Part shown: in pieces, positions 21,869 through 56,298 of the stretch
Position numbering within the stretch: position 1 is the stretch's first letter
How the letters are laid out: each line of letters starts with the position of its first letter
DNA from: an uncultured Candidatus Saccharibacteria bacterium
GTDB lineage: Bacteria; Patescibacteriota; Saccharimonadia; Saccharimonadales; EFPC-124
Length of the DNA: 64,000 nucleotides
Direction of reading: 5' to 3'
NCBI GenBank assembly: GCA_965225085.1
Contig: CBDDBE010000005.1
Span: 2,378 to 66,377, forward strand
Position numbers and translations under genes: made by a program
The notes under the pieces: generated by a model
Told to the model about the DNA's origin: nothing
Seen by the model: only the letters and a program-made list of their open reading frames with translations
The model's database searches: none

Positions 21869-22273
21869 CTATTGAACCACCGTGAATACGCCGATCAGCT
21901 CGTCGTGCAAATGGTCGTGGAACGTAAATGTTCCGGTCTGATTTAAAGCCACGGTCAGGCTCTGCCCTTTTGTGAGTGTCTGCTGCGCGATGCCATCGTA
22001 GGCCTGGTGGTCATCGTGGGGGCCAAAGGCCATAAGGCGTAACTGGTCGTCACCATTAGTAATGGTTAGCGTATCGCACTGGCGGGCGGTAATCGCGTCT
22101 GAGCTTAAATGGTCATGATCGATCAGAACCGTCCAGTGATGAGGCCCGCGCGTGCAAGCCGTCGGCTTGTTGGTGTTGTTACTTGATAGGTAGCTCAGTG
22201 AGGCGAAGATGGTGCCGGCAATGACAGTAGTAATAGCGACGACCATCGCTGCTACGAAGAGTAGCCGTTTCAT
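21869..22273 (-). CDS. Membrane-anchored cupredoxin-like protein (no Cys ligand; His-rich FHDHLHDE)
   Basis: MKRLLFVAAMVVAITTVIAG anchor; C-terminal ..GQSLTVALNQTGTFTFHDHLHDELIGVFTVVQ resembles a cupredoxin beta-sandwich. ATGA overlap with the upstream gene; ends 31 nt before cyoA. Confidence 0.4.
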   Translation of the reverse strand: MKRLLFVAAMVVAITTVIAGTIFASLSYLSSNNTNKPTACTRGPHHWTVLIDHDHLSSDAITARQCDTLTITNGDDQLRLMAFGPHDDHQAYDGIAQQTLTKGQSLTVALNQTGTFTFHDHLHDELIGVFTVVQ

Positions 22274-29531: not shown

Positions 29532-29535
29532 GCCG

Positions 29536-30174: not shown

Positions 30175-30177
30175 TGA

Positions 30178-41317: not shown

Positions 41318-42490
41318 CTATTGATCAAACAGCCAAAAGGCAATGTGCTGCTGGTTCAGTTCAGCTATGAAGCTGGTAAGTACTGGCGTGCTGAGCGAAC
41401 TGAACGGTGCGTTCGCGCTCCAGTATGACCAGTTGGTCTCTTCTGAGGCTTTGCTTTTATCTTCGGCAAACATGTTGATTGCGACGGTGTAGCCTTGCTT
41501 CTGCAGAGTCAGGGCTTGCTGGTTGATTGTCGTTAGGATGGCTTGGCGCTGTTGGGCCGAGACGTAGGCAATCTGTGCTGGGTCAAGCGCGTATTTTTCC
41601 GAGAATGTACCGGTATTGAGCCATATATTTTTGGTGCCGAGGTAATTTGCAGCCTCGCTGATAATCGACGGATTCAGGAACTCGGCAGCATTCAGAATTG
41701 GACCGGAGCCGCCCTGAGGTGGGACCCACGGGAAGCCTTCGAGGCCAGCATAATCGATGGTGTGTGGCGTGATACCTTTGACGTATGGCAACAGCGTTGT
41801 GTAGTTACCGTTCTGCCAGTTGAAGTCGGTTGGCTCGTAGGTAGCGGTGTTGAGCATGATGCTGGTTTGAGCGCCTGGGAAATGCTTTTTCAGCGTCGTG
41901 ATGTAGAGATTTACATCAGGCGCAAAATACTGAGCAAGGTTGTTCTTCCAGTATGGCAGGTTGGCTTCTGGGAATGGATTCCAGATTCCCATTTGGCTAT
42001 CGGTGATGCCTTGATCGTGCATGGCGGTGAGCATGGTCTCGAGGTAGCCGATGTACGTCCCTTGCGCGAATTCGCCCATGTCGACATTGTTATTGGTGGT
42101 GTAGTCCGTTGGTTCGGCCATAACCAGCGGGCGTATGTGGTATTTTGCGAATGTCTTGAGTGTGTCGGCAACCTGTTTCGCCTCGGTCTGGGCGTCTTGC
42201 TCGGAAAGCGGCATGCCTACAAATATCATAATCGTATCGGTTGCGAACGAATGACAGGCTTGCTGATAGACGGCCAGCTTCTTCAGCTGTGGGTTCTGCG
42301 CGTCGGTGAGGGTGAGCGGTTTTTCCGATGAACAAGCCGTCGTGGTGACGGATATCGCCTTTTGCGGGCTAAGGTTGCGCAGCAAATCAAGCGGCTTGTT
42401 GCCGGTCATGAATTGGTAGACCGTGCCAGCAGAGAACAGCGTTAGCCCAACAAAAATCAGATTGATAAATACAATGTGGCGTTTTTTCAT
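41318..42490 (-). CDS. Membrane-anchored protein, possibly a clan GH-A-like glycoside hydrolase
   Basis: N-terminal TM. NPFPEANL and AGLEGFPW resemble the acid/base and nucleophile Glu strands of (beta/alpha)8 hydrolases. ATGA overlap with the GT2 gene. Confidence 0.4.
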   Translation of the reverse strand: MKKRHIVFINLIFVGLTLFSAGTVYQFMTGNKPLDLLRNLSPQKAISVTTTACSSEKPLTLTDAQNPQLKKLAVYQQACHSFATDTIMIFVGMPLSEQDAQTEAKQVADTLKTFAKYHIRPLVMAEPTDYTTNNNVDMGEFAQGTYIGYLETMLTAMHDQGITDSQMGIWNPFPEANLPYWKNNLAQYFAPDVNLYITTLKKHFPGAQTSIMLNTATYEPTDFNWQNGNYTTLLPYVKGITPHTIDYAGLEGFPWVPPQGGSGPILNAAEFLNPSIISEAANYLGTKNIWLNTGTFSEKYALDPAQIAYVSAQQRQAILTTINQQALTLQKQGYTVAINMFAEDKSKASEETNWSYWSANAPFSSLSTPVLTSFIAELNQQHIAFWLFDQ

Positions 42491-43776
42491 GAATCAGACA
42501 CTCCTTCGCGTTGCCAGCGTTGCCATTCCAGGCTATCGCCGCGTACTACCATGTGTAGGCTACGTACGAGTGCGTTAAACTCAACCCACACCAGTAGGTA
42601 GAACAGCGGCCATGTAACTGGCCACAGCGCAATGAGCCCTAGGCGCTGCCGCCAGGTCATAGAGCTGTTGAATGTAGCGACGATAACATACGAGATACCA
42701 ACGAACAGCATGCTCAGTGCCAGGGAGACGAACTCGCCCGAGATGATACTGTACGTGATGAGTAACGTGGCGCCAATTGGCTCTAGCATCAGCTGGATTT
42801 CGGAAAACATAGAGTACGGCAGGATAAACCAGCTGAGCGGTTTGTTGTGCCGTCGTTCCCACGAGAAGAACATGCGGCGATAGGTGATGAAGGTATCGAA
42901 TCGGCCCTTTTTCCAGCGGAGCCGTTGGTTGACGAGCCCAAGGTATGTGCTGGCGCCCTCGGTATAGCACAGGACATCTTCGGCGTAGAAGGATTTCAGG
43001 CCGTGGAATTTGGTGCGCATCGACATTTCAATATCCTCGGTCTTGTTCAATTCGTCGAAGTGCCCAAAGTAGTCGAATGTGGCGCTCTTGCGAAATGCTG
43101 CACACGCCCCACCGTAGATGTATTCAGCGCCCATGACGCAGTGTGCTCGTTTGAAGTAGAACCCGAATAGGTACTCGAGCTGTTGCATGCGCCCGATGAT
43201 GCGTCCGTTGGTGTTGCCCACGCGTACCTGGCCAACGACCGCTGATATTTGATCGTCGTGGAAGTACTTGACTAGATTTGTGATGGCATCCGGGGCTAGG
43301 ACCGAATCGGCGTCGATAGTCAGGACGATTTCGCCGCGCGCTTTCTGAATGCCGTAGTTTAGAGCTTTGCCCTTGCCGCCGTGTTCTATGTAGAATTGTC
43401 GGACAGGGTGGCGTACGGCTGATTTTTTGGCATGTGATTGGCGAAATTTGTGTTCGTCGATGTAGGCGTCGACGACTTGTTGGGTTAGGTCGGTTGACCC
43501 ATCATTCACCACAATAACCTCGAACAGAGGATAGTCATTGGCCAGGACGGAGCGCATGGTTTTTACGGTCCCAACCTCTTCGTTCCAAGCTGGGACGATT
43601 ACAGATACCCTCGGTTGGTACTCGGTGATCTTGCCGGTGCGTTTGAACTCGCGTTTCAGAAGCTTAAGCCGTCGTCGCTGGACGCGGTAAGGGAAATAGG
43701 CAGCCATGGTTAGGAAGGCAAAGTATTTGACCAGCATGATAGTTGCCAGGAAAATCGTAATATTACGAAATAGCAT
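42487..43776 (-). CDS. Processive family-2 glycosyltransferase (PgaC/cellulose/chitin-synthase-like)
   Basis: VSVIVPAWNEE.., VVNDGSTD, TIDADS, QRLRWKKG (QxxRW), N- and C-terminal TM segments. Start at MLFRNITIFL (43776). Confidence 0.85.
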   Translation of the reverse strand: MLFRNITIFLATIMLVKYFAFLTMAAYFPYRVQRRRLKLLKREFKRTGKITEYQPRVSVIVPAWNEEVGTVKTMRSVLANDYPLFEVIVVNDGSTDLTQQVVDAYIDEHKFRQSHAKKSAVRHPVRQFYIEHGGKGKALNYGIQKARGEIVLTIDADSVLAPDAITNLVKYFHDDQISAVVGQVRVGNTNGRIIGRMQQLEYLFGFYFKRAHCVMGAEYIYGGACAAFRKSATFDYFGHFDELNKTEDIEMSMRTKFHGLKSFYAEDVLCYTEGASTYLGLVNQRLRWKKGRFDTFITYRRMFFSWERRHNKPLSWFILPYSMFSEIQLMLEPIGATLLITYSIISGEFVSLALSMLFVGISYVIVATFNSSMTWRQRLGLIALWPVTWPLFYLLVWVEFNALVRSLHMVVRGDSLEWQRWQREGVSDS

Positions 43777-43793
43777 AAAGATTTCTGTATTGG

Positions 43794-44435
43794 TCACTGT
43801 TCTGCTCCCATAACCGAGAGCAAGTTTGCCTCGATGATAATGTTTATCCCCGAGCCGTCGTCGTAACAGTTGACGATGAGCTTGCCCGTCGCCCCATCGT
43901 CGCTGGGCACGTACGGTGCAATGCCGCTGAAGGCATGTGTCGAGGTTACTTTGTATACGTAGCGCCATTTTTGGTCGGTGTCGATGAAGATGTTCTGGCC
44001 TGCGCCTGGCATATTCTGAGTGTTTATAGTGCGGAAGCTGCTTCGACAGTACAGAAACGCTATGCCGATGTTGCCGCTGCGTGGTGGGCTGGGAATTACG
44101 AGTTGCAGCGTGCTGGGGCGCGCCAGCCATGTGGAGTTGTCCTTGATGGCGCTTACGATGTTGAGGCGGACCGAGTTGGTGGGCAGCTTGAGTGTGGAAG
44201 GCTTGCCAAAGTTGCCGTAGTAGGCGTTTTTGGGCGTGGGCGCAAGCGTGCCAAGATGGTACACGTCCGTAAATGCGCCTAGGCTGATCGGCGCAATGGT
44301 GTGCACGAACGGTAACGGTCGGTTGTAGACTGATTCATACCCAGAGGCCAAAAGGTATGCGCTCATCAGCCCGCATATGGTGAAGACACTCACGCGCGCA
44401 AATAACAGGGCAATACGCTTGCTGACTTTGGTCAT
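43794..44435 (-). CDS. Membrane-anchored hypothetical protein (213 aa)
   Basis: N-terminal TM; beta-rich ectodomain. Ends 18 nt upstream of the GT2 start. Confidence 0.45.
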   Translation of the reverse strand: MTKVSKRIALLFARVSVFTICGLMSAYLLASGYESVYNRPLPFVHTIAPISLGAFTDVYHLGTLAPTPKNAYYGNFGKPSTLKLPTNSVRLNIVSAIKDNSTWLARPSTLQLVIPSPPRSGNIGIAFLYCRSSFRTINTQNMPGAGQNIFIDTDQKWRYVYKVTSTHAFSGIAPYVPSDDGATGKLIVNCYDDGSGINIIIEANLLSVMGAEQ

Positions 44436-44736: not shown

Positions 44737-46761
44737 TTATACCGAGGCAATCCTTGTCCAGTAGGCCGAAACCCCGGTCTGGCTGAGGCTGATAGATGAA
44801 ACAAGCATGTTCTCGGCAAACCCGCCAGTGCCTCCGCCAAATACAAAGTAGCTAGAGGTAATGGTTGTTGACACGCCAGTCTGTGTCAGTATTAGGTTGC
44901 CGTCGGCATAGACCGTCGCCGTGATGGTTGATCCGTTGGCGGCAAATACCACCCGCCAGGTGTGCGAGCCCGAGGGGTTAAAACCTACTGATGAATAGTT
45001 GGTCGAGACCCCGGAAGTGTTCGTTGATACTACTTGCACAAAATTATTAGACCAGGTTAGAAAGCGCACGATCAATGAGGGGCGAGCTAAGATACCTACG
45101 CTTCCTCCTGTACCACCGATTGCCGTTGTCGAGTTGGCTGTTGCGTCCAATACACCAAATCCAAATCCGTCAGCCGGTGTGCCACTTGCGGTAATGTTGG
45201 TGCTGAAGGTCGCATCGATGTAAGGGCTCGATATGGTACTTTTGTATACGATGTTGCCGACGCTGCCAGTTTGCGATGAGGTGGTGAGCGTCGCGGTTGT
45301 GCCATCGTTGGTAGCCACGCCGTTTGCTTGCCAGTTGCTGGTACTGAGTGAATTGGTGACTAGCTGCGTGCCGAGGGGGTCTTGGTTGGTGTTGGCCGAG
45401 GTGCATACATATAAACCGCTGCCGGATTTTGTGACCACTGCGCCGACAGCGTAACTGGTCGCGGAGCTCCATTCACCGCGGAATATCATGGCGCCACTAC
45501 TGCCGCTGACCTGGGTGTCGACGTAGCCCTTTGTGGCGGCGTCGGTTGTGAGCGTGGGGGTGGCGAGGTTGGTTATCTTTTGGGAGTTCAAGCTCACTGC
45601 GGCAGTGGGCGCGTTTGCTTGGTCTAGTCGTGGCATTGTATGGATATGTCCAGCATCGGCCGCTTTGCCGATCGCGCCTGCAGCCTGCGTTCCAAGCGGC
45701 GCAATATCGCTGGCCGTAGCATCTAGCTGCACGCCGGCTGCTGGCGTGGACCAAGTGGTTGCTGTGCTGCTGGTAGCGGTCAGGACTTGATTGGCTATTG
45801 GCGCGGAACCCGGCAGCGTAATGCCCGAGAGCTTAGCAACGGTTGGAGACGCTGCGGTGCCGCTCAGGTCGCCTGCAAGCTGTACCTTGCCTTTTGTGCT
45901 GGCCGTCGCGTCGGGCGTAGCGTTGCTATCTACGTAATTTTTCGTTGCGGCGTCGGCAGCGTTTGTCGGTGTTGGGACGATGACCTCGCCAGTGAATGTC
46001 TTGGTCCCACCGATACTCTGAGTAGTGGTGAGGTCGGCAAAGTTTTGCGTTGCTGATCCGGTACCACCCTGCGCAATAGGGAGGGGCGCTGCTAGGTGTG
46101 TGGCCACGACGGTAGGGTTAGGATAGCTTCCGCCCAAATCGCCAGTAGCTGTGCCATTTGGCGGTAGTGCGGTTGGGATTTGCCCAAAAGTTGCCGCATC
46201 CGTGGCTAGCGTGCCGTTGGCTAGGCTGGCTATCTTGCGCGAGTTCATGCTTACCGTGGCGGTCGGTGCTGCAACTTGGTCCAGACGCGGCATGGCGTGG
46301 ACATGGCCGGCATCGGCCGCCTTGCCAATCGATCCAGCAGCTTGCACGCCAAGCGGCGCAATGTCAGAAGCTGTTGCGTCCAGCTGGACCCCTGCGGCTG
46401 GTGTGGCCCATGTCGTTGTGCTGCTACTAGTGGCTGTCAGTACTTGATTGGCGCTCGGGGCTGAACCTGGCAGGCTGATGCCAGAAATTTTGGCAACGGT
46501 CGGATTGGGGAGTGTCCCTGATAGGTCGTTGCCTACGCTTGATCCTGGTTGCAGCGCACTGTCGGCGCTACCAAGGGACGTCTGGACCGGAGTGCTTAGG
46601 TCGCTTTTGGGGACCCCGCTTGAGGGTTTAATGTAGCCGCCCGCCGCTGATATTGCGCTGGTCTGGAGTGAGCCGTCGGAATTGTGGGAAACCTCAAGAA
46701 AGGTGTTAAGAACATCGCCCCAAACGCCGTTATCCGATCCCGGATTTGGAAGTCGCGCCAT
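44737..46761 (-). CDS. Tail-fibre-like protein B: shared N-terminal module, two ~115-aa repeat modules and a C-terminal ConA/LamG-like domain
   Basis: MARLPNPGSDNGVWGDVLNTFLEVSHNSDGSLQTS. Duplicated GKAADAGH(V/I)H(A/T)MPRLDQ modules. QSIGGTKTFTGEVIVP. FRGEWSSATSYAVGAVVTKSGSGLYV. No signal peptide. Confidence 0.7.
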   Translation of the reverse strand: MARLPNPGSDNGVWGDVLNTFLEVSHNSDGSLQTSAISAAGGYIKPSSGVPKSDLSTPVQTSLGSADSALQPGSSVGNDLSGTLPNPTVAKISGISLPGSAPSANQVLTATSSSTTTWATPAAGVQLDATASDIAPLGVQAAGSIGKAADAGHVHAMPRLDQVAAPTATVSMNSRKIASLANGTLATDAATFGQIPTALPPNGTATGDLGGSYPNPTVVATHLAAPLPIAQGGTGSATQNFADLTTTQSIGGTKTFTGEVIVPTPTNAADAATKNYVDSNATPDATASTKGKVQLAGDLSGTAASPTVAKLSGITLPGSAPIANQVLTATSSTATTWSTPAAGVQLDATASDIAPLGTQAAGAIGKAADAGHIHTMPRLDQANAPTAAVSLNSQKITNLATPTLTTDAATKGYVDTQVSGSSGAMIFRGEWSSATSYAVGAVVTKSGSGLYVCTSANTNQDPLGTQLVTNSLSTSNWQANGVATNDGTTATLTTSSQTGSVGNIVYKSTISSPYIDATFSTNITASGTPADGFGFGVLDATANSTTAIGGTGGSVGILARPSLIVRFLTWSNNFVQVVSTNTSGVSTNYSSVGFNPSGSHTWRVVFAANGSTITATVYADGNLILTQTGVSTTITSSYFVFGGGTGGFAENMLVSSISLSQTGVSAYWTRIASV
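45526..45870 (-). repeat. Intragenic repeat module 2 of protein B (residues ~298-412)
   Basis: DLSGTAASPTVAKLSGITLPGSAPIANQVLTATSS..GKAADAGHIHTMPRLDQ..DAATKGYVD, about 80% identical in protein to module 1. Confidence 0.7.
46183..46527 (-). repeat. Intragenic repeat module 1 of protein B (residues ~79-193)
   Basis: DLSGTLPNPTVAKISGISLPGSAPSANQVLTATSS..GKAADAGHVHAMPRLDQ..DAATFGQI. Confidence 0.7.
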
Positions 46762-46915
46762 ACAGTATCAAACCGCTCCTGCTAAATGTAATAGCTTTAG
46801 TATATATATTGGAAGGCGCTACTGCAATTTTTGAAATGTAGGCGTGTTATAAGTTAAAAATTGTGGTATAATATATTTGTCTAGAAATCCTAGGCAATGC
46901 TTCGAGGGGTAGAGT

Positions 46916-47386
46916 ATGTCTAGCCAGAAATACAGCTGCGAAGAGGTCCTGACTATCACCGTGAGCGGCCTCATGGGCACGGTCACAGTGAGCCATGTCG
47001 ACGGCATGGAAGGCATGAATGCCGACATTGGGGGCGACTTCGTGGCGGAAAAGATCGAAGCCTTCAAAGTGAGCATTCACCCCGCAGGCCAGCAGCCTCA
47101 ACGGCGGGCCAACAGTCTAGTCGTTCGCGGAGATGTGAGCGTCATGGCCGTAGGTTCGGGTTCGATCGCAGCCTTGAGCATCGATGGTCCAGTCACCATC
47201 GGTGGCGGCCGAGTGGTCGTTGGCGAGCCGACTCCGCAGCCTCCGCGGCGCATGGTCGAGGGCTCGATCAGCATCACCTGCGGCCCGGACTGCAGGGTTC
47301 GTCTGCTGGGATGCTTGGGAGACTACACTGGCCCGAACGGCCAGTCTGGTCGCATGTCGCCCGAGGACAACGTCCGTATCGACTGA
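46916..47386 (+). CDS. Hypothetical protein (156 aa)
   Basis: ORF track; TGgTATAAT-like extended -10 at about 46862; followed by a terminator. Confidence 0.4.
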   Translation: MSSQKYSCEEVLTITVSGLMGTVTVSHVDGMEGMNADIGGDFVAEKIEAFKVSIHPAGQQPQRRANSLVVRGDVSVMAVGSGSIAALSIDGPVTIGGGRVVVGEPTPQPPRRMVEGSISITCGPDCRVRLLGCLGDYTGPNGQSGRMSPEDNVRID

Positions 47387-47401
47387 GCCTTCGGGCTCGG
47401 T

Positions 47402-47424
47402 GGCCTCGCCCTAGCGGCGAGGCC
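47402..47424 (+). terminator. Rho-independent terminator (ggcctcgcc/ggcgaggcc followed by a T-run)
   Basis: Perfect 9-bp arms, 5-nt loop, then ttttcattttt. Confidence 0.55.
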
Positions 47425-47427
47425 TTT

Positions 47428-48258
47428 TCATTTTTGCGACTGGGGCACGAGGCTGCGTCGGTAATTGACGGGAGTGGCCCCGAGGACTTTTTTGAAGTCA
47501 GTAATAAAGTGTTGTTGGCTACTGTAACCGGCGTCGTAGGCGATGGCCGTCCAGTCAGGCCTGACCGTCGCGCGGATACTCTCGGCGGCTGCCAGGAGTT
47601 TTTGGCGCTGGAGTAACCATTTCAGGCCCACACCAATATAATCTTGAAAAAGCTGTTGTAGCCATCGCTCGCTCTTGCCATATGCATGGGCGACAGCTGC
47701 GACAGTTTGCAGATTTGGGTCGCTCTCTGTCGCGGCGATAATCTGGTTGATAAGCACAACATTGGTGTCCGACCGCGGCAACCTGGCGCGGAGTATCGGC
47801 AATAGCTGCTGAATTGCGGCTTGATCGCTTTTGTCCAGCAGCTCGGCCTGGAATGCGGCGTCTATCTCGGGAAAGACTTTAGTTAGGCCAATGACGGCAT
47901 CCTCGAGCTCGGCCATATTCCCGGGCCAAAAGCCATGAAAGGCCCCGGGCAGGAACCGCACGCCGATAATTCTGCCTCGCCCAGCTGCGGTATACGTTCG
48001 TTTGCCCCGGAACGTGCCTTGAATGCCCGACCAACCATCTGAAATAAACAGGTCGACATAGGGGCGATGCATGACTTGCATGGATTTATACGCTGGCCCT
48101 GATTCATTCCAGCTGAGTGTCCAAAAGTGCTCGAGCACAGCTGCTAGATCATCGGGCGGCAGATAGGTGTGAAACTCGACATGTTGGTCAAAGCCAGCCG
48201 GATCCAGATGACCGCGGGGATTTTTGCTTTCTGCGGATTTTTGTAATACATCACTCAT
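47428..48258 (-). CDS. AraC-family transcriptional regulator
   Basis: C-terminal HTH_AraC: ..VAHAYGKSERWLQQLFQDYIG.., IAYDAGYSSQQHFITDFKKVLGATPVNYRR. Confidence 0.8.
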   Translation of the reverse strand: MSDVLQKSAESKNPRGHLDPAGFDQHVEFHTYLPPDDLAAVLEHFWTLSWNESGPAYKSMQVMHRPYVDLFISDGWSGIQGTFRGKRTYTAAGRGRIIGVRFLPGAFHGFWPGNMAELEDAVIGLTKVFPEIDAAFQAELLDKSDQAAIQQLLPILRARLPRSDTNVVLINQIIAATESDPNLQTVAAVAHAYGKSERWLQQLFQDYIGVGLKWLLQRQKLLAAAESIRATVRPDWTAIAYDAGYSSQQHFITDFKKVLGATPVNYRRSLVPQSQK

Positions 48259-48308
48259 GCTTCTTTGTAGTATAAGCGAGTCAACAATCAACAGAAAGGA
48301 TTAACAAC

Positions 48309-48707
48309 ATGACACATCTATCACTTAAGGGCGTTGCGACTATCAGCATTTGGGCGGACAAGCATACGGAAGCGGTTGCATGGTATACCAAGCTGCTGGG
48401 TACTAAGCCATATTTTGAACGACCAGGCTACGTCGAATTTCGGCTGGGCGACAAGCAGACCGAGCTGGGGATTATCGACCGGGCCTACGCACCGCACATG
48501 ACGTTTCCAGATGGGCCATCCGGTGTCGTGCTATACTGGCACGTCGATGATATCAAGGGTGCATATGAGCTGGCCTTGAAACAAGGTGCCACTGAATTGC
48601 AGGCCCCTGAGGACCGCGGTCATGATTTTGTGACGGCGACGGTGGTTGACCCATTTGGCAATATTTTGGGCCTGATGCACAATCCACACTATCTCGAGAT
48701 GCGCTAG
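48309..48707 (+). CDS. VOC/glyoxalase-family protein
   Basis: ISIWADKHTEAVAWYTKLLG.., VVDPFGNILGLMHNP. Confidence 0.75.
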   Translation: MTHLSLKGVATISIWADKHTEAVAWYTKLLGTKPYFERPGYVEFRLGDKQTELGIIDRAYAPHMTFPDGPSGVVLYWHVDDIKGAYELALKQGATELQAPEDRGHDFVTATVVDPFGNILGLMHNPHYLEMR

Positions 48708-48715
48708 GCGACGGC

Positions 48716-49096
48716 ATGAGCAAATTGAATGAATTGCCAGTCGTACCTTTTGCGATAGCGCGCGACTTCGAGGCGTGGCTTGGGCGACATCACGCCTCGG
48801 AAGATGGCATATGGATAAAGATGGCCAAAAAAACGTCTGGCATTCCTTCGATTACGCACGATCAGGCATTGGACGTGGCGCTGTGCTATGGCTGGATCGA
48901 TAGCCAGCGCCTCGGTCGCGATGAGGTGTATTTTCTCCAAAAGTTCACCCCGCGCCGATCCCGCAGCCAATGGTCGGTGCGCAATGCCGGTAAGGTTGAG
49001 CAGCTCATCGCCACAGGGAAGATGCAGCAATCTGGACGTGCAGAAATCGAAGCGGCTATCCGTGACGGCCGATTGCATCTCGAACTTGACGGGTAG
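48716..49096 (+). CDS. YdeI/OmpD-associated family protein, apparently C-terminally truncated
   Basis: FEAWLGRHHASEDGIWIKMAKKTSGIPSITHDQALDVALCYGWIDSQR..FTPRRSRSQWS.. ends at ..AAIRDGRLHLELDG*. Family members, as I recall them, continue DGRW..AY plus about 60 aa more. Confidence 0.55.
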   Translation: MSKLNELPVVPFAIARDFEAWLGRHHASEDGIWIKMAKKTSGIPSITHDQALDVALCYGWIDSQRLGRDEVYFLQKFTPRRSRSQWSVRNAGKVEQLIATGKMQQSGRAEIEAAIRDGRLHLELDG

Positions 49097-49162
49097 GCCG
49101 AGGAAACGTTGCTTTCGTGGTATAGCATAAGGATTTATGTACTGGTACAATATCCAGTATAT

Positions 49163-50260
49163 ATGTCATTACTTTTTATCGACGGATTTGACGCCAAAGA
49201 TACCCTTACGAAATGGCAGCACTATTTCCCTAGTGGGCCGGGGGGTCTTTCGTATGGGGCGACGACGCGTTTTGGAACTGGTTATGCTGTCTCGACGGCT
49301 CCTACTGATTCGGGTGGGTATGGCGTTATTCGTACCTTTACGGCATCGTCGCAGGTGTTTGTCGGCGCAGCCGTGCAGAGCGGCTACGGAGGGTTCAATT
49401 ACGGTCCGCCGTTTCATATCTTGGCCGGGGATCAGTCGGCTACCTTCCATCTGTACCTTATGACTAACAATCTGGGTGCTGTGCAGCTGTGGCGTGGTGA
49501 TGGCCATTCGGGTAGTATTAGCTATCCGCAGTGGGTTCCAAACGGCACCATGCTGGCTACCAGCTCGAATGGCGTGTTGAATCCTAGCATTTGGCGATAT
49601 GTCGAGATGAGCGCAACAATTGATAGTTCGGTCGGCACTGTCCAGGTGCGGGTCGATGGTACGCAGGTTATTAACTTTACCGGCAATACCCGCAACGGCG
49701 GCACCTCTGCGACCATCGATACATTTATGATCAACTCACTGTCGTTGTACTACACGACGTTTAATATCTTTTATCCTGGCTCACCAGTTTATGATGACCT
49801 TTATGTGTGCAATAGCCTCGGATCTACCAACAACACCTTTCTGGGTGATGTCCGTGTGCAGACTTTGATGCCAAATGCGGCAGGTAGCAGTACTCAGTTG
49901 ACACCAACTGGTTCCGCCAACAATTATGCTAACGTATCAGAGGTGCCGGATAATATCGCTACCTATAATGCCTCGTCGACAATTGGCCAGCGTGATACGT
50001 ACGCGTTACCGGATCTGCTGGCTACTACAGGCTCGGTCTTTGGCGTGCAACAGATCATGACCGCCATGCGGGCAGACGCAGGTAGCGGCAGTATCAAGAC
50101 GGCCCAGAAATCTGGCGCGACTATTTCGTACGGCCCAGTACGTTCACTCGGCGCCGCACCCAACACATACGTTGAAATGTACGAGCAAAACCCCGCAACG
50201 TCGTCCGCGTATACGGTTTCGCAAGTCAATGGTTTGGAAGCTGGAGCCGAAATCGCGTGA
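49163..50260 (+). CDS. Jelly-roll (ConA-like) two-domain protein P1, paralog of P2
   Basis: MSLLFIDGFDAKDTLTKW.., WRYVEMSATIDSSVGTVQVRVDGTQVINFTGNT, GDVRVQTLMPNAAGSSTQLTPTGS, YNASSTIGQRDTY. No signal peptide. Confidence 0.65.
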   Translation: MSLLFIDGFDAKDTLTKWQHYFPSGPGGLSYGATTRFGTGYAVSTAPTDSGGYGVIRTFTASSQVFVGAAVQSGYGGFNYGPPFHILAGDQSATFHLYLMTNNLGAVQLWRGDGHSGSISYPQWVPNGTMLATSSNGVLNPSIWRYVEMSATIDSSVGTVQVRVDGTQVINFTGNTRNGGTSATIDTFMINSLSLYYTTFNIFYPGSPVYDDLYVCNSLGSTNNTFLGDVRVQTLMPNAAGSSTQLTPTGSANNYANVSEVPDNIATYNASSTIGQRDTYALPDLLATTGSVFGVQQIMTAMRADAGSGSIKTAQKSGATISYGPVRSLGAAPNTYVEMYEQNPATSSAYTVSQVNGLEAGAEIA

Positions 50261-50322
50261 GCAATCTAGATCTGCGAATGAGTTATTCTGTATCAGGTGG
50301 CGCCGCCAGGGAGCAAGGATAA

Positions 50323-51423
50323 ATGTCGCTATTATTCGTAGATGGTTTCGACACCAAAGACACGCCGACTAAGTGGCTGATAACGGGCACAGGTAATACG
50401 GGGTCGCTGAGTTTTTCTACGACGACACGGTTTGGGGCTGGCTCGGCTGTGTCTATGCCTTTTAGTAATAGCAATAGCCAAATCTACACCATCATGAAGT
50501 CATTTACGGCTTCATCGCAGATATTTATTGGTGCCGCAATTCAGCATGGCCGACTATCTAATTTGACGTATAGCCCGCCGTATCATGTACTATTGGGCGA
50601 CGGTGGCCAAACGGCACACTTATATTTGCTGACTACGAATTCTGGCAGTATCCAGCTGTATAGGGGCAGCGGAGTGCGCGCATCGGCAAACGGCGGTCAG
50701 TGGATTCCGAACGGCACCATGATCGCATCGAGCGCGGGCGGGGTAATGGATTCGGGCTGGCACTACGTGGAAATGTCGGCAACCATCCATCCGTCAGCGG
50801 GCAGCGTCGTAGTAAAAATCGATAACACGCAGGTTCTTACCTTCGCTGGCAATACCCAGAATGGTGGGACTAACCTTACGATCGATTCTGTGGCATACTC
50901 CGGCATGTCCGCAACTGACTTTATTGTGAGTTTACCAATTGGGTCTCCGGTCGTTGACGATTTGTATATCTGCAATAGCCTGGGCACGGTTAACAATACA
51001 TTTATAGGTGACGTCCGCGTGCAGACACTTTTGCCAACTGGCGCCGGCGCCTCTACCCAACTAACGCCGACGGGTAGCGTGAACAACTGGGCAAATGCCG
51101 CGGATGTGCCGGACGACACCACGACGTATAACGCTTCATCGACAATCGGGCAGCGCGATACGTACGTTATGTCTGACCTTGCGGCCACCACCGGGCAGAT
51201 TTTTGGAGTCCAGAGTAATCTGCACGCTTCGAAGCCCGATGCTGGAGCGGCAAACATCAAAGCCGCGTACAAGTCTGGGGCGACTGTCTACTATGACGCC
51301 TCCCGGACAATCGGAACAACAAATGAAGCGTACCAGGCTGTTCGCGAAACGGATCCGCTTACCTCGTCGGCCTGGACCACGTCGACTGTTAACGGCTTGG
51401 AATTTGGAGCTGAGGTTGCATGA
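50323..51423 (+). CDS. Jelly-roll (ConA-like) two-domain protein P2, paralog of P1
   Basis: MSLLFVDGFDTKDTPTKW.., WHYVEMSATIHPSAGSVVVKIDNTQVLTFAGNT, GDVRVQTLLPTGAGASTQLTPTGS, YNASSTIGQRDTY. Confidence 0.65.
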   Translation: MSLLFVDGFDTKDTPTKWLITGTGNTGSLSFSTTTRFGAGSAVSMPFSNSNSQIYTIMKSFTASSQIFIGAAIQHGRLSNLTYSPPYHVLLGDGGQTAHLYLLTTNSGSIQLYRGSGVRASANGGQWIPNGTMIASSAGGVMDSGWHYVEMSATIHPSAGSVVVKIDNTQVLTFAGNTQNGGTNLTIDSVAYSGMSATDFIVSLPIGSPVVDDLYICNSLGTVNNTFIGDVRVQTLLPTGAGASTQLTPTGSVNNWANAADVPDDTTTYNASSTIGQRDTYVMSDLAATTGQIFGVQSNLHASKPDAGAANIKAAYKSGATVYYDASRTIGTTNEAYQAVRETDPLTSSAWTTSTVNGLEFGAEVA

Positions 51424-52724
51424 GTTATCTTTCGGAGCAGAATACTGACACTCCCATTGACCGGTGGAAGTTTGAGGAGACTTCCGGCACGACTATTGCC
51501 GATGATATTGCCTCCACTCACAATGGCACTACCAACGGCACGGTTACTCTCAATCAGCTGCCGCAGTTCGTCGGTAGCAATCTCGGCGCCAATTTCGACG
51601 GAACGAGCGCCTATGTGAGCTTTACTAATGCCTCGGGCTTACTCGGTATAGGTACGATCGAAGCCGTAGTTCAATTCACAGCCGTTGCATCAACTGCTGA
51701 TATAATATTTACGCATGCTTTCACCGGAGGGATACTGCCTTTAGTGCTGGGGACCAATCTTGATGGAGGCCACTCGGGTTTGCTGCAGATTGGTTACTAT
51801 ACGGGCAGCGTTTGGCAGACTTCGACCTGGTCGACTGCCCCGTCTTTGAACACGCCTTATCATTTGGTGGGCACGTACAATGGCACAGCGCTAACGCTGT
51901 ATGTAAACGGTAGCCAAGTTGCCACTTCCAACCCGGCAACGGCTCGGCCAGGCTCAGGAACCATTGATAATACGGGCTATATAGGGCGCCGATGGGATCT
52001 TACCCAATACCATAATGGGCTTATTTGGGACGTGGCACTTTACAGTGGTGCGCTTTCTAGCGGAAGGGTCACGGCGCATTATAACGCCCTCGCCAATGTT
52101 TTTGCTGACAACTTTGCGAATGCCGGGGACCTCGGGGTCGGCGGCAATATAACCGGAGTCAATACTACCGGTTGGACCACCGAAGGCAGCGAGCCTGGTA
52201 GCATGTCGCACACTGGGTGGGCAACATTTACACCGACGTCAACGCGGCAATACCGAGTATCGACCGTTGGCTCAAATTTTGACACGCTGCTTGCGATATA
52301 TACAGGCACGGCACTCAACAACCTTGTACTGGTCGCATCGGATGATAATTCCGGTGGCTCAAATACGTCATTGATCGAGGCGACGCTGACTTCCGGCACA
52401 ACGTATTATGTGCAGGTCGGCGCACAGCCGGCCGGTTCGGGTGGAACGCTTAGTTTTAGCCTGGCTCAGGCGGCGACCTCAGCGGTAACGGCCGCATATA
52501 TAGAGGCCACGAGCACTCCGAGCACCACCGCACGACAACTGTCGGCTGCGTATGTGGACGCGGCAACTATTCCAACGTTAACGTCCAGACAACTGTCCGC
52601 AGCCTATATCGAGGGCACAACCATTCCGGCGCTTTCCGTCCGCCAAGTTACAGCAGCCTATATCGAGGTATTGACGCCTAGTGTTTACAGCAGGCCCTTT
52701 GTCGGATGGGGTGTACCGCTGTAG
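51420..52724 (+). CDS. LamG (Laminin_G_3) domain, PPC-like domain and C-terminal AAYIE repeats
   Basis: WKFEETSGTTIADDIASTHNGTTNG.., YHLVGTYNGTALTLYVNGSQV.., IWDVALYSGALSSGRVTAHY. Then WATFTP..FDTLLAIYTGT..ASDDNSGG..TYYVQVG. ATGA overlap with P2. Confidence 0.7.
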   Translation: MSYLSEQNTDTPIDRWKFEETSGTTIADDIASTHNGTTNGTVTLNQLPQFVGSNLGANFDGTSAYVSFTNASGLLGIGTIEAVVQFTAVASTADIIFTHAFTGGILPLVLGTNLDGGHSGLLQIGYYTGSVWQTSTWSTAPSLNTPYHLVGTYNGTALTLYVNGSQVATSNPATARPGSGTIDNTGYIGRRWDLTQYHNGLIWDVALYSGALSSGRVTAHYNALANVFADNFANAGDLGVGGNITGVNTTGWTTEGSEPGSMSHTGWATFTPTSTRQYRVSTVGSNFDTLLAIYTGTALNNLVLVASDDNSGGSNTSLIEATLTSGTTYYVQVGAQPAGSGGTLSFSLAQAATSAVTAAYIEATSTPSTTARQLSAAYVDAATIPTLTSRQLSAAYIEGTTIPALSVRQVTAAYIEVLTPSVYSRPFVGWGVPL

Positions 52725-52737
52725 CACCAAATAATAC

Positions 52738-52756
52738 AGGCGGCACCGTGCCGCCT
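52738..52756. terminator. Stem-loop between convergent genes (aggcggca/tgccgcct)
   Basis: 8-bp arms, 3-nt loop, A-run before and T-rich sequence after. Confidence 0.45.
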
Positions 52757-52780
52757 ATATTTCCTCGTAAAAGCTATTCC

Positions 52781-54349
52781 TTAAGCTATCTCTACCTGAA
52801 CGCACAGGTCCGCGCCAGCAACGCTCGAGCCAACCTGGGCAATGTCGACGGTTAGATAGCTGCCGTCGGGCACGGCTGTAACGTCCATATTTGTTACCTT
52901 GCCAGAAGTGAACGCGCTAGCGGCAATCGCTGGACGGTTGGCCTGGGTGGTGAAGATAGTTGTGCCGCTTAGCTTGACGTCAACGATAATGGAGCTGCCT
53001 GTGGGCGCCGTGCCAACGCTAGAACGGACACCTTTGATGGTCCAGGTGGCGCCGGTGTCGTTGTACAGGCGGTGCACGCCAGCCTGTACGGCAAGCGTTC
53101 CAGTGCTGGAGAAACTTTGGATTTGGTTGACGGTAACACCGCCCCATGTAGCCGCTGAGCTACTAGTTGCGGTCAGCACCTGTCCACTCGCTGGCGTTCC
53201 ACTGACGGCTACGCCATTAACTTTGGCCACAGTTGGTCCGGGATAGGTTCCGCTTAGATCATTAGAGGCTGCGCCGGATGGCGGCAGGCTGGACGCTGGC
53301 GTTGCCCACCTCACGCCTGTAGCCTGCGTGGAATCGGCGGTGAGCACTTGGGCATCACTTCCTACTCCAACACGGGTAATCGTGCTGGCGGCCGTGGCGG
53401 CGAGCAGGTCGCCTTTGGTTGTGGCAGTGCTGGACTGTATGGCCCCTGTAATACGGGCATCATTACCAATAGCAACAGTACTGCTCGTCGTCCCGGTTGG
53501 AAGATTCGCAATAGGCACCTTGCTGCTACCATCAAGCGGCGCATAGCCGCTTGCTGCGCCTTTGTTGGTGGTCTGCTCAGCTCCCGTAATACGGGCATCA
53601 TTACCCTGCGCAACGGTACCGGCAATCACGCCAAAGCTAGCAGAGATGGTGCGGTTAGCGCTTAGGTCCCCACCGCCAGTGAGACCTGAGCCTGCGGTGA
53701 TGGTGGTGGAAGTGTTGGCTTTGGTGGCAAGGCCAGGAACAGTTGGCAACGCGGCCGTTCCGGCCAGATCACCCGCTAGCTGAACCTTACCCTTTAGCAG
53801 TGTCGTTGCGTCAGGCGTCGCGTTGGTCGTTATCTGGGTGTCGACGTAATTTTTGGTAGCAGCGTCCTGGGCAAGGGTCGGGTTGGCGACGTTAGTAGCT
53901 TTTTGGCTGTTGAGGCTGACACTGGCGGTCGGGGCGGCAACTTGGTCCAGACGGGGCATGGTGTGCACGTGGCCGGAGTCGGCAGCCTTGCCGATGCCGC
54001 CTGCCGCCTGAGTGCCAAGTGGTTGAATGTTGCCGGCGGCGCCATCTAGCACGACGCCGGAAGCGGGCGTGGTCCATGTAGTTGTCGATGCGCTAGAAGC
54101 AGTCAGCACTTGGTTTGCGACCGGGGACGAAGACGGAAGCGAGAGTCCGTTTAGCTTTATAACAGATGGTGCGTCAGCCGTGCCAGACAGGTCACCGGCC
54201 AACTGAACTTTGCCTTTTGATGTAGTCGTAGCATCGGCAACAGCACTCGATTTAAGCGTTCCGTCGGGGTTGTGGATGGTACTCAGGAAGTCATTTAATA
54301 CATCGCCCCAGATACCATCGTCACTATCGGGAATTGGTAGACGGGGCAC
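52781..54349 (-). CDS. Tail-fibre-like protein C: shared N-terminal module, one repeat module and a C-terminal beta-sandwich-like domain
   Basis: MPRLPIPDSDDGIWGDVLNDFLSTIHNPDGTLKSS. GKAADSGHVHTMPRLDQ module (53840-54193). KGKVQLAGDL(S/A)GTA occurs twice. No signal peptide. Confidence 0.7.
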   Translation of the reverse strand: MPRLPIPDSDDGIWGDVLNDFLSTIHNPDGTLKSSAVADATTTSKGKVQLAGDLSGTADAPSVIKLNGLSLPSSSPVANQVLTASSASTTTWTTPASGVVLDGAAGNIQPLGTQAAGGIGKAADSGHVHTMPRLDQVAAPTASVSLNSQKATNVANPTLAQDAATKNYVDTQITTNATPDATTLLKGKVQLAGDLAGTAALPTVPGLATKANTSTTITAGSGLTGGGDLSANRTISASFGVIAGTVAQGNDARITGAEQTTNKGAASGYAPLDGSSKVPIANLPTGTTSSTVAIGNDARITGAIQSSTATTKGDLLAATAASTITRVGVGSDAQVLTADSTQATGVRWATPASSLPPSGAASNDLSGTYPGPTVAKVNGVAVSGTPASGQVLTATSSSAATWGGVTVNQIQSFSSTGTLAVQAGVHRLYNDTGATWTIKGVRSSVGTAPTGSSIIVDVKLSGTTIFTTQANRPAIAASAFTSGKVTNMDVTAVPDGSYLTVDIAQVGSSVAGADLCVQVEIA

Positions 54350-54462: not shown

Positions 54463-56298
54463 TTACAATATAATCTTTGCAGTTGTGCCGTGGTTTACCT
54501 GAGAGCTCACCGAGATATCGCCGCCCAGGTAAGTCATGATCAGCTTCGAAAGGTATAGCCCAAGCCCGATGCCGTCATGCCCCATCAGCATTGGGTCGTC
54601 GGCTTTGACAAATGGCTGGAAGAGCAACGGCTGCTTGTCTGTCGGGATGCCTGCGCCTTGATCGGCTATGGTCATGCTGCACGCGCCTTGACCGTCATTG
54701 GCGGCTGTTATGGTTACTTGTGCGCCTTCGGGGCTGTAGGCGACGGCGTTATCGAGCAACGACGTCACGACGTATGCTAGCAAGCTCGGCCCGCGACCAA
54801 CCAGCTCGACTTCGGGAGGATAGTTGAGCGATACGTGTTTTGCCTGCATATTTTGCGCTATGGGCTGTATGGCGCGGTCGATGATGGATTTTGCGGTGAA
54901 CGCTTCGAACAGTGATTGGTCCTTACCGATAGCTAATTGCTGGGCGACGCCAAATTTGTCGATCAGCGCCCGTAGTCGATGATAGCCGTCGCGGAACAGC
55001 GTAGCGGGCTGGCCGTCGCCTAGGCTGCTTAGCTGCATGCCGAGCGGCTGCAAAACTGGTTGCAAGCTAGCAAGGCTTTGGCGGATGAGTTCGTTGCGAT
55101 GCTGGTCGATGTCGGCCTGCTCTCGTCGGCCTTGCTCGAGGCGTTGTCGCTCACGGCTGCGCAGTGTGCGTTCGCGAAGGAGCATATACAGGAGCACGGA
55201 CAGAATGACAAAGATGATAACCTGGGCAATTACGTTTATTGCCGTAACGCTGAGTGTACCCGCCAACGCCACCATGAGGTCAAAGCCAAAGGCAACGAGC
55301 CCCAGGACAAGCACTGTGCCAATAAATCCGGGTCGCAACCACATAGCACGCGATTTGCCCGTAGGCGTGTTGGCTCCGGTAACGGCGGAGGGTGCGCCCG
55401 TTACTCGTTGCAGGACTTGTTCGATCGCCTGATGTACCGCAGCGACAGGGTCCTTTAGGGCCAGCCAGGCTGGTGAGGGCGTTTGTATGATAGCCAGCCC
55501 CAGCGCGCCGTCCATGACGCTCGATGGTGTGCGCAAATAGTGGGAAGCTGTATCTATGAACGTTTGTTTCTGCTCGGCCAAAGCCTTGTCACGTTCAAGC
55601 GCTCTGCGCAGTGCTGCCAGCTCGGCTGCTTCGCGCCATGTTTGGATCAAGAGCAGCAACAGCACAATGGCCAGCAGCGCAAACAAGAAGTAGGGGAAGA
55701 TGTAAGCAATCGGTGCCGGAATAGTTCCAATAAAGCGTAACAGGGCGCTAACGGCTGCCTGCCAAAAGCCTTCTGGCTCGATCGATTGAAGCGGCAGCGG
55801 TGTTGGCTGCGGTGGAGTGGCGGTCGTATGCTGGACGGCTAGGGTAAACGTGCGCGTGATAGGATTGCCACTGACGGGGTAAATGATTACCTCTACCTTC
55901 GTGCCTGGTTGGGTTTCGGGGTTCCACTGCCAGCTGTACGTATCGCTGGTGTCGTGCTGGCTGGTTTGTACAAGTGCACCATCCAGGTAAAATTCTACCT
56001 TCGATACGTTTTGGCCGGTATCGTGCAGAATTGTCACGATGACCGTTGTGCCGTTGGCGGGTATGGTCTGACCATCCGTCAGGTTAATGGCATAGTCGAC
56101 CGTGGGGGTGCTAACAATGGTCTGTGGCTGGGTGGCGGCAGGTGGACAACCAGTCTGGTAGACACATGAATTGTATGTGCCCTGGCCGTAGCCGAGCGCT
56201 TCGGCGCGCAAGGGAATGCTCATGACACTCAAGGCACCAACCAAGAGCACGAGCATTCCCAATCCCCTAGCAACTAGTGTGTGACTGCGCAGTCGCAT
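54463..56298 (-). CDS. Sensor histidine kinase with an extracellular Ig-like domain (no adjacent response regulator)
   Basis: H-box FIDTASHYLRTPSS. HATPase LLDNAVAYSP..DQGAGIP..GIGLGLYLSKLIM. Start taken at MRLRSHTLVA (56298). Confidence 0.8.
   Translation of the reverse strand: MRLRSHTLVARGLGMLVLLVGALSVMSIPLRAEALGYGQGTYNSCVYQTGCPPAATQPQTIVSTPTVDYAINLTDGQTIPANGTTVIVTILHDTGQNVSKVEFYLDGALVQTSQHDTSDTYSWQWNPETQPGTKVEVIIYPVSGNPITRTFTLAVQHTTATPPQPTPLPLQSIEPEGFWQAAVSALLRFIGTIPAPIAYIFPYFLFALLAIVLLLLLIQTWREAAELAALRRALERDKALAEQKQTFIDTASHYLRTPSSVMDGALGLAIIQTPSPAWLALKDPVAAVHQAIEQVLQRVTGAPSAVTGANTPTGKSRAMWLRPGFIGTVLVLGLVAFGFDLMVALAGTLSVTAINVIAQVIIFVILSVLLYMLLRERTLRSRERQRLEQGRREQADIDQHRNELIRQSLASLQPVLQPLGMQLSSLGDGQPATLFRDGYHRLRALIDKFGVAQQLAIGKDQSLFEAFTAKSIIDRAIQPIAQNMQAKHVSLNYPPEVELVGRGPSLLAYVVTSLLDNAVAYSPEGAQVTITAANDGQGACSMTIADQGAGIPTDKQPLLFQPFVKADDPMLMGHDGIGLGLYLSKLIMTYLGGDISVSSQVNHGTTAKIIL

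Follow-up and report, generated by a model that had tools for sequence, protein, structure and literature searches.

Signal-less proteins of phage-fibre type with a shared N-terminal module form a cellular family in Saccharibacteria and neighbour tat genes in relatives

How the ultrasmall epibionts of the Patescibacteria (the candidate phyla radiation, CPR) recognise and hold their hosts is the question addressed by the genes described here. They lie on a 64-kb stretch of DNA from an uncultured Candidatus Saccharibacteria bacterium (contig CBDDBE010000005.1; the whole stretch is called the window below), in which three large open reading frames (ORFs), g578, g674 and g522, open with the same short module and continue like phage tail fibres. 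Cultivated Saccharibacteria are known from published work to grow as epibionts on Actinobacteria. What would fibres of phage type do in such a cell, and how would proteins without an export signal reach its surface? Our analysis leaves little doubt that the genes belong to a maintained cellular family and are not prophage debris. The reading that we favour, with modest confidence, is that they are vertically maintained and encode fibres and depolymerases which are displayed at the surface, target the host envelope and leave the cell already folded, hitchhiking through the twin-arginine translocation (Tat) system.

ORF listing and translation placed the three genes where the initial annotation had put them, with the correction that g522 begins with GTG. 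The common start claimed there, of about 33 residues, was recovered at about 35, with the consensus M-x-R-L-P-x-x-(G/D)-S-D-(N/D)-G-(V/I)-W-G-D-V-L-N-x-F-L-x-x-x-H-N-x-D-G-(T/S)-L. This N-module lies at 32637-32741 (+) in g578 (35 codons: MSRLPVSGSDNGVWGDVLNDFLLVEHNSDGTLKSA; hmmsearch E=2e-25), at 46657-46761 (-) in g674 (E=4e-26) and at 54245-54349 (-) in g522 (E=3e-25). Over a 40-residue alignment of the three, 20 columns are invariant and pairwise identity is 60-65%; the modules are 60-71% identical as protein and 57-64% as DNA, and the codons differ at most of the conserved residues. When WGDVLN was back-translated into a DNA pattern, it was found at three sites in the 64 kb, all of them in the module genes. 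Because the protein is conserved (60-71%) while the DNA is only 57-64% identical and mostly uses different codons, and because synonymous sites are saturated among the g578 orthologues described below, the three modules are old paralogues under selection and not recent copies or recombination cassettes. The possibility that the conserved 5' ends serve as cassettes for swapping the distal parts was considered and rejected on the same DNA identity and the mostly different codons. No convincing common element was seen in the regions upstream of the three genes.

To size the family, we ran an exhaustive profile search with the 40-residue module over cluster representatives at 50% identity. It returned 6,192 representatives at E<=1e-3 and 2,861 at E<=1e-10. 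In nearly all of them the match begins at residue 1, and the sequences downstream of the module diverge completely. As the profile recovers thousands of representatives, nearly all from residue 1, the module is a genuine domain and not the generic low-information motif that had been a concern. Neither Pfam nor NCBIfam holds a model matching the 35 residues, and a sequence search against the PDB gave only chance matches (cyanovirin, E ~0.08). In 82 family representatives, the domains that follow the module were DUF5907 (25), BppL_N (23), pectate-lyase-like (14), Beta_helix (7), collagen (4) and GDSL esterase (3), with K1-lyase_C, Mtd_N, a phage tail repeat and others more rarely. This variety supports the tail-fibre plan first proposed from the window, with a constant attachment end and exchangeable distal ends. 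The module's second half (...HNxDGTL...) also recurs as an internal repeat within two giant proteins, 30 times in P0128 (6084 aa) and 14 times in P0162 (2227 aa), and part of the handle may derive from a repeat unit or have been reused as one.

The first gene, g578 (32637-34373, +; 578 aa), carries after its N-module a BppL_N-like motif (residues 46-66), a CBM5/12-like segment (94-125) and a right-handed beta-helix (~130-578). Its Pfam matches, Pect-lyase_RHGA_epim (39 bits) and BppL_N (30.1 bits), are both above threshold, and PHROGs assigns it to tail spike/fiber families. In an AlphaFold2 (AF2) model built with 48 homologues, the mean predicted local distance difference test score (pLDDT) was 84.6; residues 90-578 form a confident right-handed beta-helix, in line with the beta-helix depolymerase first annotated, and residues 1-88 were modelled without confidence, which is compatible with a region that needs partners. 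Within the poorly modelled N-module, the monomer shows one short helix (residues 13-22) spanning WGDVLNDFL. Foldseek matched the model to the tailspikes 8iq5 (tailspike protein, TSP, of K2-2) and 4ojl (CBA120 TSP1), AlgE alginate epimerases, GH55 glucanases and Pantoea WceF (6tgf), with modest TM-scores of 0.2-0.37. Twenty-seven orthologues of g578 were found at 65-84% identity, some on ~1-Mb contigs. Among them the nonsynonymous divergence (dN) is 0.15-0.25 and synonymous sites are saturated, and dN/dS is therefore given only qualitatively.

The second gene, g674 (44737-46761, -; 674 aa), has two DUF5907 units after the N-module, then a BppL_N-like 'TQSIGGTKTF' motif and a putative C-terminal Ser/Thr-rich beta domain. 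The third, g522 (52781-54349, -; 522 aa), has one DUF5907 unit, repeats of actinophage minor-tail type at residues ~150-300 and a C-terminal match to phrog_27064 (E=1e-21). Outside g578, the tips are putative beta-sandwiches. DUF5907 (PF19264) has a gathering threshold of 27 bits in Pfam, and both proteins exceed it (35.7 bits in g674, 45.1 bits in g522); g674 also matches phrog_2647 (E=1e-15), and g522 matches the minor-tail family phrog_8780 (E=3e-14). A 143-aa DUF5907 unit is common to the two, at 69% identity, which amends the initial description in that this pair shares sequence beyond the N-terminus. With tblastn, g522 found 62 phage records, all from Mycobacterium, Gordonia and Streptomyces phages and mostly annotated as minor tail protein; identity between its repeats and the minor tail proteins of the Mycobacterium and Gordonia phages amounts to 36-58%. 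A protein identical to g674 is encoded on Logan contig SRR9179560_559612.

Between g674 and g522 lies a cassette of three genes on the plus strand (49163-52724), as described at the outset; two of its proteins match phrog_2448 and one matches Laminin_G_3. Cassette gene 1 (49163-50260; 365 aa) encodes a ConA-like jelly-roll protein (phrog_2448, E=3e-37); ATG at 49163 is its most likely start, the longest ORF beginning with TTG at 49109. It is a paralogue, at 56% identity, of cassette gene 2 (50323-51423; 366 aa), a ConA-like lectin or glycanase N-domain followed by a second beta domain (phrog_2448, E=5e-35). Cassette gene 3 (51420-52724; 434 aa) combines a LamG/ConA-like lectin (Pfam Laminin_G_3, E=4e-16) with a PPC-like domain and ends in ...GWGVPL. 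The AF2 model of cassette gene 2 (pLDDT 93.8) has a ConA-like lectin/lyase N-domain, for which Foldseek against the PDB gave PL7/PL14 alginate lyases, GH16 enzymes and L-type lectins; the whole protein, searched against BFVD, resembled phage proteins (TM 0.79), one of them annotated 'virion structural protein'. Full-length homologues of this protein are encoded in Caulobacter, Brevundimonas and Sphingomonas phages, directly after tape-measure or tip-attachment genes. Brevundimonas phage Fanboy has three tandem phrog_2448 copies and then a lectin-domain protein, which is the gene order of the cassette. The order jelly-roll, then lectin-domain protein, was also met in two Saccharimonadia loci (L168 and L169 in our numbering of related loci), and the L169 protein ends in ...GWGLPL. 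By homology, all parts of the finding are phage-tail-distal in ancestry. The closest homologues of g578 and of the cassette are labelled Candidatus Saccharimonadia or Saccharibacteria, several of them on contigs of 0.9-1.2 Mb, a length typical of entire genomes in these bacteria.

None of the six proteins, module and cassette together, shows a route out of the cell of its own. Their maximal 19-residue Kyte-Doolittle hydropathy is <=1.44, no hydrophobic N-terminus was seen, and Ser, Thr, Gly and Ala make up 40-51% of residues, which agrees with the initial description of proteins rich in these residues and devoid of signal peptides and transmembrane (TM) segments. Inspection of hydropathy and of the C-termini (...TWQWTLL, ...WTRIASV and ...CVQVEIA) revealed neither a Sec signal peptide nor an LPXTG sorting signal in the three module proteins. 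Nor do they carry a twin-arginine signal themselves, since M-x-R-L-P-x-P-G-S-D, with which they begin, contains only one Arg and lacks a hydrophobic core.

We then compared the occurrence of the module in phages and in cells. A scan of one genome per species gave 74 module loci, mostly in metagenome-assembled genomes (MAGs) of Saccharibacteria and including the complete genomes CP023991.1 and OZ246413.1; a minority come from other Patescibacteria or possibly from mis-binned contigs. A single MAG holds up to 4 loci, despite the narrow scan pattern. In phages the module is rare: it was found in 6 of 50,697 GenBank phage records, all of them 112-116-kb Streptomyces phages with the gene in a tRNA island, and on 6 IMG/VR contigs, which are genuine phages with terminase, portal and capsid genes. 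The family is thus far commoner in cellular genomes than in phage collections. On the phage contigs L006 and L008, the module gene lies between head genes and further virion-structural genes, and on L011 two tandem module genes adjoin a terminase-like gene. For gp186 of Streptomyces phage BRock (NC_048650.1; L086 8791-9738), the start codon was probably deposited too far upstream, since it falls at an overlap with a tRNA-Lys gene and the N-module begins 210 nt further downstream, at locus position 9001.

In the cellular loci, the neighbourhood points to protein export. When all ORFs of the 74 loci (flanks of +/-6-10 kb) were clustered all-versus-all, no phage genes were found and the largest neighbour family was TatC, at 8 of the 74 loci, with TatA nearby; Pfam supports both assignments (TatC, E=1e-45 to 1e-49; TatA, E=1e-10). 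TatC also came first (7) when Pfam families were counted in the 145 ORFs that lie nearest to the module genes, two per locus; GT2 was second (5) and sortase among the next (3), and none of the 25 families listed was a phage structural family. The other recurrent neighbours were housekeeping genes (SSB, EF-P, TypA, FtsK, RarA), which we ascribe to local synteny, and no conserved partner emerged from the clustering other than the Tat-linked and related genes discussed here. In the complete genome CP023991.1 (L052 5989-10137), an N-module fibre, a sortase, a small protein with a YG motif, tatC and a small twin-arginine (RR) protein follow one another in that order.

This small RR protein has 65-80 residues, with the pattern ...L-L-x-x-x-[MLV]-[ST]-R-[RK]-E-F-L-x-Y, ~20 hydrophobic residues and a last stretch of ~25 residues that ends in G-Y-G-x-G-x-Y-G-G. 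It matches the Rieske Tat-signal model weakly and consists of a textbook twin-arginine motif and a signal anchor with almost no mature part. Examples occur from L088 to L167 (e.g. L131 6784-6990 and L145 7662-7854) and at L169 13348-13554, and the protein could be a substrate, an escort or a component of Tat. In a reverse test, we scanned metagenome contigs with a Saccharibacteria-type TatC (alignment of 6 sequences) and obtained 80 TatC loci, 57 of which encode the small RR protein and 33 a module gene. We counted module genes around tatC at the 50 loci whose TatC was closest: 26 have their start no more than 1.5 kb away, a density of 0.25 per kb. The outer flanks have 0.028 per kb and the background, taken around unrelated module genes, is 0.014 per kb, so that module genes are enriched 9- to 18-fold beside tatC. 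The distance from the stop of the RR gene to the start of the module gene is -8 to +24 bp at 23 loci (~20 of them non-redundant), and 11 of the 23 pairs overlap; such a spacing looks like the signature of translationally coupled partners. The RR protein is near-constant in tat operons of the Saccharibacteria type, to which the fibre gene is often, though not always, added. Family members next to tat genes are often very short (~100-160 aa), with the N-module and a short tail such as ...HNxDGTQKTLPxxKGGTG (e.g. L074 3550-3942, L029 6001-6471, L100 ~5286 on the minus strand, L108 ~4731 and L111 ~5558); these may represent a base or adaptor form, not a full fibre.

The arrangement of the window is itself met beside tat genes. 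At L169, a module fibre with a tip homologous to the g522 tip is followed by a jelly-roll protein, a 288-aa protein and an F5/8C+LamG protein (the one ending in ...GWGLPL), then convergently by the RR protein, tatC and tatA, and then by a Big_7 histidine kinase like the one encoded at 54463-56256 in the window. At L020, tatA, tatC, a g522-like fibre, the RR protein and a Big_7-like secreted protein lie together, with no cassette. The window neighbourhood of g522-type fibre, cassette and Big_7 kinase thus recurs beside tat genes at L169 and, minus the cassette, at L020. The simplest explanation would place most fibre genes apart from a single tat locus that serves them in trans. With no tat genes in the window, export of its three fibres would require a tat locus in another part of the genome.

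Taken together, we propose that the three genes are ordinary chromosomal genes which would form a polymorphic set of phage-derived fibres and glycan-cleaving spikes. Each protein combines a handle of ~35 residues with a shaft of phage-type repeats and, at its distal end, a lectin or enzyme domain that is exchangeable; the ConA-like/LamG cassette would be an accessory part of the fibre apparatus. Tat hitchhiking is proposed because the proteins have no signal peptide. The fibres would fold, and probably trimerise, in the cytoplasm; the handle would bind the 65-80-aa RR membrane protein, which would target the complex to TatC and, after export of the folded cargo, stay in the membrane as an anchor. 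Displayed on the surface, the distal ends may bind or cut polysaccharides of the host envelope, as phage receptor-binding proteins do. We rate the chances of a role at the cell surface in host interaction as about even, and hold the Tat route more tentatively, at somewhat less than even. Of the two options left by the initial annotation, the domesticated attachment system is the better supported, in that the genes are cellular and maintained and Tat with an RR escort offers a candidate route. What the data show is the family with its modular build, its cellular setting, its protein conservation over saturated synonymous sites and, in relatives, its close linkage to tat genes; surface location, host binding, trimerisation and the hitchhiker step are inferred.

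Several points weigh against this proposal. Gene linkage is no proof of export. Neither tatA nor tatC nor a small RR gene lies in the 64-kb window, and none of its three module genes is preceded by an escort gene; the adjacent RR partner typical of hitchhikers was seen at 23 loci of relatives and not at these three. At ~30 loci of a second lineage, the order is tatC, RR protein, tatA, with no adjacent module gene, and the RR protein may have a general Tat role unrelated to fibres. Phages use the module without nearby Tat genes, so that the primary function of the handle may be docking rather than export. Finally, published work credits type IV pili and unnamed adhesins with the host attachment of cultivated Saccharibacteria, and the literature that we searched on attachment in Saccharibacteria and Patescibacteria makes no mention of this family or of its Tat link.

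The initial annotation had also considered that the genes might be the scattered remains of a decayed prophage, leftover tail-fibre genes that are now functionless. Phage homologues do exist for all parts, and genuine phage contigs as well as Streptomyces phages carry this N-module. The window tells otherwise. Pfam and PHROGs scans of ~66 ORFs over the 64 kb (some ORFs <150 aa lay outside the scan) found no phage morphogenesis genes, in agreement with the claimed absence of capsid, portal, terminase, tube, sheath, baseplate and integrase genes, and only cellular functions: LigD, Ku, GMP reductase/IMPDH, MGMT, TetR, GT2, AraC, glyoxalase, a histidine kinase, a Mur ligase, TrmD, RNase III, NusB, heme O synthase and cytochrome oxidase. 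The ordinary regulators and enzymes mentioned in the initial annotation are indeed there (e.g. TetR, AraC, LigD and GMP reductase). Fibre and cassette proteins aside, the sole non-cellular exception is one weak endolysin-like match. The window holds no integrase and a single tRNA gene, ~27 kb from the nearest of the six genes; its GC content is flat, with no compositional island, and all six ORFs are intact. Gene decay and patchy strain-specific presence, the hallmarks of prophage remnants, were not seen: orthologues at 65-84% identity are kept in many genomes and in varied cellular contexts, with dN far below the saturated dS. One of them, 75% identical to g578, sits on a 1.2-Mb contig amid radical-SAM, MarR, two-component and alanyl-tRNA-synthetase genes, and its locus shows no synteny with the window. 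With the family also far commoner in cells than in phages, a decayed prophage is largely refuted and in our estimate very improbable. Another use of phage parts would be as spare receptor-binding proteins that dock by the N-module on a virion, a tailocin or a particle like a gene transfer agent (GTA) encoded elsewhere and released by lysis, for which no export signal is needed. Virion parts normally have no signal peptides, and phages do encode module proteins within structural gene clusters (L006, L008, L011). Sheath, tube, baseplate and spike genes of the kind found in tailocins, extracellular contractile injection systems (eCIS) or type VI secretion systems (T6SS) were, however, absent from the 64-kb window, and no structural genes lay within +/-6-10 kb of the 74 related loci. 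Genomes of ~1 Mb leave little room for a particle locus, and the strongest linkage of the family is to tatC/tatA, sortase and polysaccharide synthase, not to lysis or particle genes. We consider such a particle improbable.

If the proteins do leave the cell, they could instead be secreted glycan-degrading enzymes and lectins for feeding or for remodelling the cell's own exopolysaccharide, the N-module being a mere export or anchoring tag. The beta-helix of g578 is glycanase-like, and the cassette proteins resemble polysaccharide lyases and lectins. Moreover, three genes lie 3' of g674 on the same strand (41318-44435, -): a 213-aa ORF, a GT2 gene (chitin/cellulose-synthase-like) and a gene for a 390-aa membrane protein. 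They are given here as context, and their membership is uncertain. This looks like a polysaccharide synthase operon, and the rank of GT2 as the second commonest nearest neighbour (5 of 145 ORFs) hints at a link of the family to the cell's own exopolysaccharide. WceF, which is Tat-exported and tailspike-like, modifies the exopolysaccharide of its producer. Against feeding or remodelling stands the extreme diversity of distal parts behind an invariable handle. That a small genome has several such versions is the pattern of a receptor-binding arsenal and not of housekeeping enzymes; furthermore, it is specifically in phages of Actinobacteria, to which the known hosts of cultivated Saccharibacteria belong, that the shaft repeats are found again. 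We judge this alternative unlikely, if less so than a particle. Hardly credible, by comparison, is an intracellular role, in which the proteins would act as decoys or sensors against phages with the same module and never leave the cytoplasm. The proteins have neither signal peptide nor TM segment and the window has no tat genes, as this would predict. Yet lectin, depolymerase, esterase and collagen-like domains act on extracellular polymers, and the family is linked to Tat, sortase and envelope genes; no defence context of the padloc type was seen, although no padloc search was made.

Returning to surface fibres as the preferred reading, the gene upstream of g522 deserves attention. The membrane histidine kinase at 54463-56256 (-), 113 bp upstream of g522 on the same strand, has a signal/TM segment, a Big_7 Ig domain, TM segments and HATPase_c. 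After the signal/TM segment, it carries the motif YGQGTYN (56170-56190, -), which lies in the N-terminal part of the kinase (...LGYGQGTYNSCVYQTG...) and is the one match to YGxGxY(G/N) in a six-frame translation of the window. Proteins with Big_7 or the YG motif adjoin tat genes and N-module genes at L020, L068 and L169, and the kinase is a recurrent neighbour and a possible partner or sensor. YGxGxYGG is also the C-terminal tail of the small RR proteins whose genes precede N-module genes, and it is found at the N-terminus of the mature form of small secreted proteins whose genes diverge from tatC; cellular loci with the motif are L029 5768-6004, L048 5785-5982, L050 4406-4648 and L074 3302-3550. 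In phages, the motif was found at L011 2573-3127, L006 12009-12320 and L008 9719-10024: a 184-aa protein of L011 ends in ...GKYGTGVYGA four bases before a module gene, and small proteins beside the module genes of L006/L007 and L008 begin with ...YYGVGVYGGATYGG and ...YGKGVYGEYLYGG. No YG-motif neighbour was found beside the module gene in the Streptomyces phages. From these small counts, YGxGxYG may be a docking partner of the N-module.

This would allow a bolder idea, which we regard as speculative and rather doubtful, namely that the N-module and YGxGxYG(G) form a portable plug-and-socket pair used by phages and Saccharibacteria alike, with the tail of the RR protein, the Big_7 kinase and small virion-associated proteins as sockets. 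In the cell, the RR protein would hold trimeric, already folded fibres by its tail, take them through Tat and afterwards serve as their membrane anchor. The kinase would present its socket at the outer N-terminus, where a docked fibre could signal host contact to the cell, and in phages the socket would belong to small virion-associated proteins whose genes adjoin that of the fibre. Were this so, Saccharibacteria would keep Tat largely for the display of a phage-derived host-recognition arsenal.

Some other features of the window concern the biology of the organism at large. The weak endolysin-like PHROG match (E=2e-4) belongs to a 557-aa protein (24970-26643, +) with a clear signal peptide and no Pfam match, which may be a secreted cell-wall hydrolase. 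A pair of non-homologous end-joining (NHEJ) genes (26853-30948, -), encoding a full LigD with phosphoesterase, ligase and primase-polymerase domains and Ku, with a pentapeptide-repeat protein in between, is present in this reduced Patescibacteria genome. The cluster at 17157-22200 (-) encodes a heme O synthase of the UbiA family, cytochrome oxidase subunits III and I and a subunit-II-like ORF, an aerobic terminal oxidase in a Saccharibacterium, which is consistent with soil lineages. Scans for promoters and terminators over ~44-57 kb gave counts not above shuffled expectation.

What the family may mean for host recognition follows from its size and variability. The attachment literature on Saccharibacteria and Patescibacteria deals with type IV pili, the type IV secretion system and unnamed adhesins. 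As to Tat, PMC6031116 notes tatBC in a single one of the Saccharibacteria genomes that it analysed. Since the present family is large and hypervariable, has several copies per ~1-Mb genome and shares its shaft repeats with phages of Actinobacteria, its members are obvious candidate determinants of host range, and it is suggested that a common pool of receptor-binding modules supplies epibionts and phages alike. The 35-residue handle provides a simple sequence tag with which members can be detected in any genome. The Tat linkage offers a testable answer to how pre-folded fibres without signals could arrive at the surface, and it may also account for the retention of Tat in reduced genomes.

The proteins can finally be set beside known systems. 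With actinophage minor tail proteins and BppL of the lactococcal phage TP901-1 they share a short conserved N-terminal attachment end, a repetitive shaft and an exchangeable distal domain, and the BppL_N motif reaches the Pfam threshold. Unlike the genes of phage receptor-binding proteins, theirs stand singly amid cellular genes of a ~1-Mb genome, with no baseplate to plug into, and outside any phage structural module in the window and at the 74 related loci. BRock gp186 ('collagen triple helix repeat-containing protein') and its counterparts in GiJojo, Alone3, LuckySocke and pSt2308 have the same N-module, at 65-71% identity, and then a fibrous region; these genes, in contrast to those of the window, are phage-encoded and lie in a tRNA island rather than in a tail module. 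The cassette is alike in family and order to the tail-tip modules of Fanboy, Sphingomonas phage Kimi and phiCbK-like phages (protein identity 25-31%, TM up to 0.79 in BFVD), from which it differs in being chromosomal and kept in Saccharimonadia (L168, L169) beside cellular genes, at L169 beside a tat operon. The beta-helix body of g578 is right-handed and parallel as in CBA120 TSP1, Klebsiella K2-2 TSP and Pantoea stewartii WceF, at TM-scores of only 0.2-0.37. WceF, a trimeric tailspike-like beta-helix made by a cell, has a Tat signal (PMC7949094) and gives a precedent for the proposed Tat step. That signal is its own and cleavable, whereas the window proteins have none and would need a partner.

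Adhesins of the Sec/LPXTG type differ from the present proteins, which have neither a Sec signal nor LPXTG; yet a sortase is a recurrent neighbour (3 of 145 ORFs). We do not class the proteins as phage genes, prophage remnants, tailocin parts, direct Tat substrates or Sec/LPXTG adhesins. Tat hitchhikers are exemplified by hydrogenase-2 (HybO/HybC) and DMSO reductase (DmsA/DmsB) of E. coli. The likeness to them would lie in a folded cargo without a signal that is carried by an RR partner, whose gene is, in relatives, adjacent and apparently translationally coupled. Unlike in these systems, the putative carrier has only 65-80 residues, made up of a signal anchor and a YGxGxYGG tail with no mature domain, and we know of no precedent for such a Tat carrier. 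Domesticated phage receptor-binding modules are known in kind; the export and anchoring idea, if confirmed, would be new.

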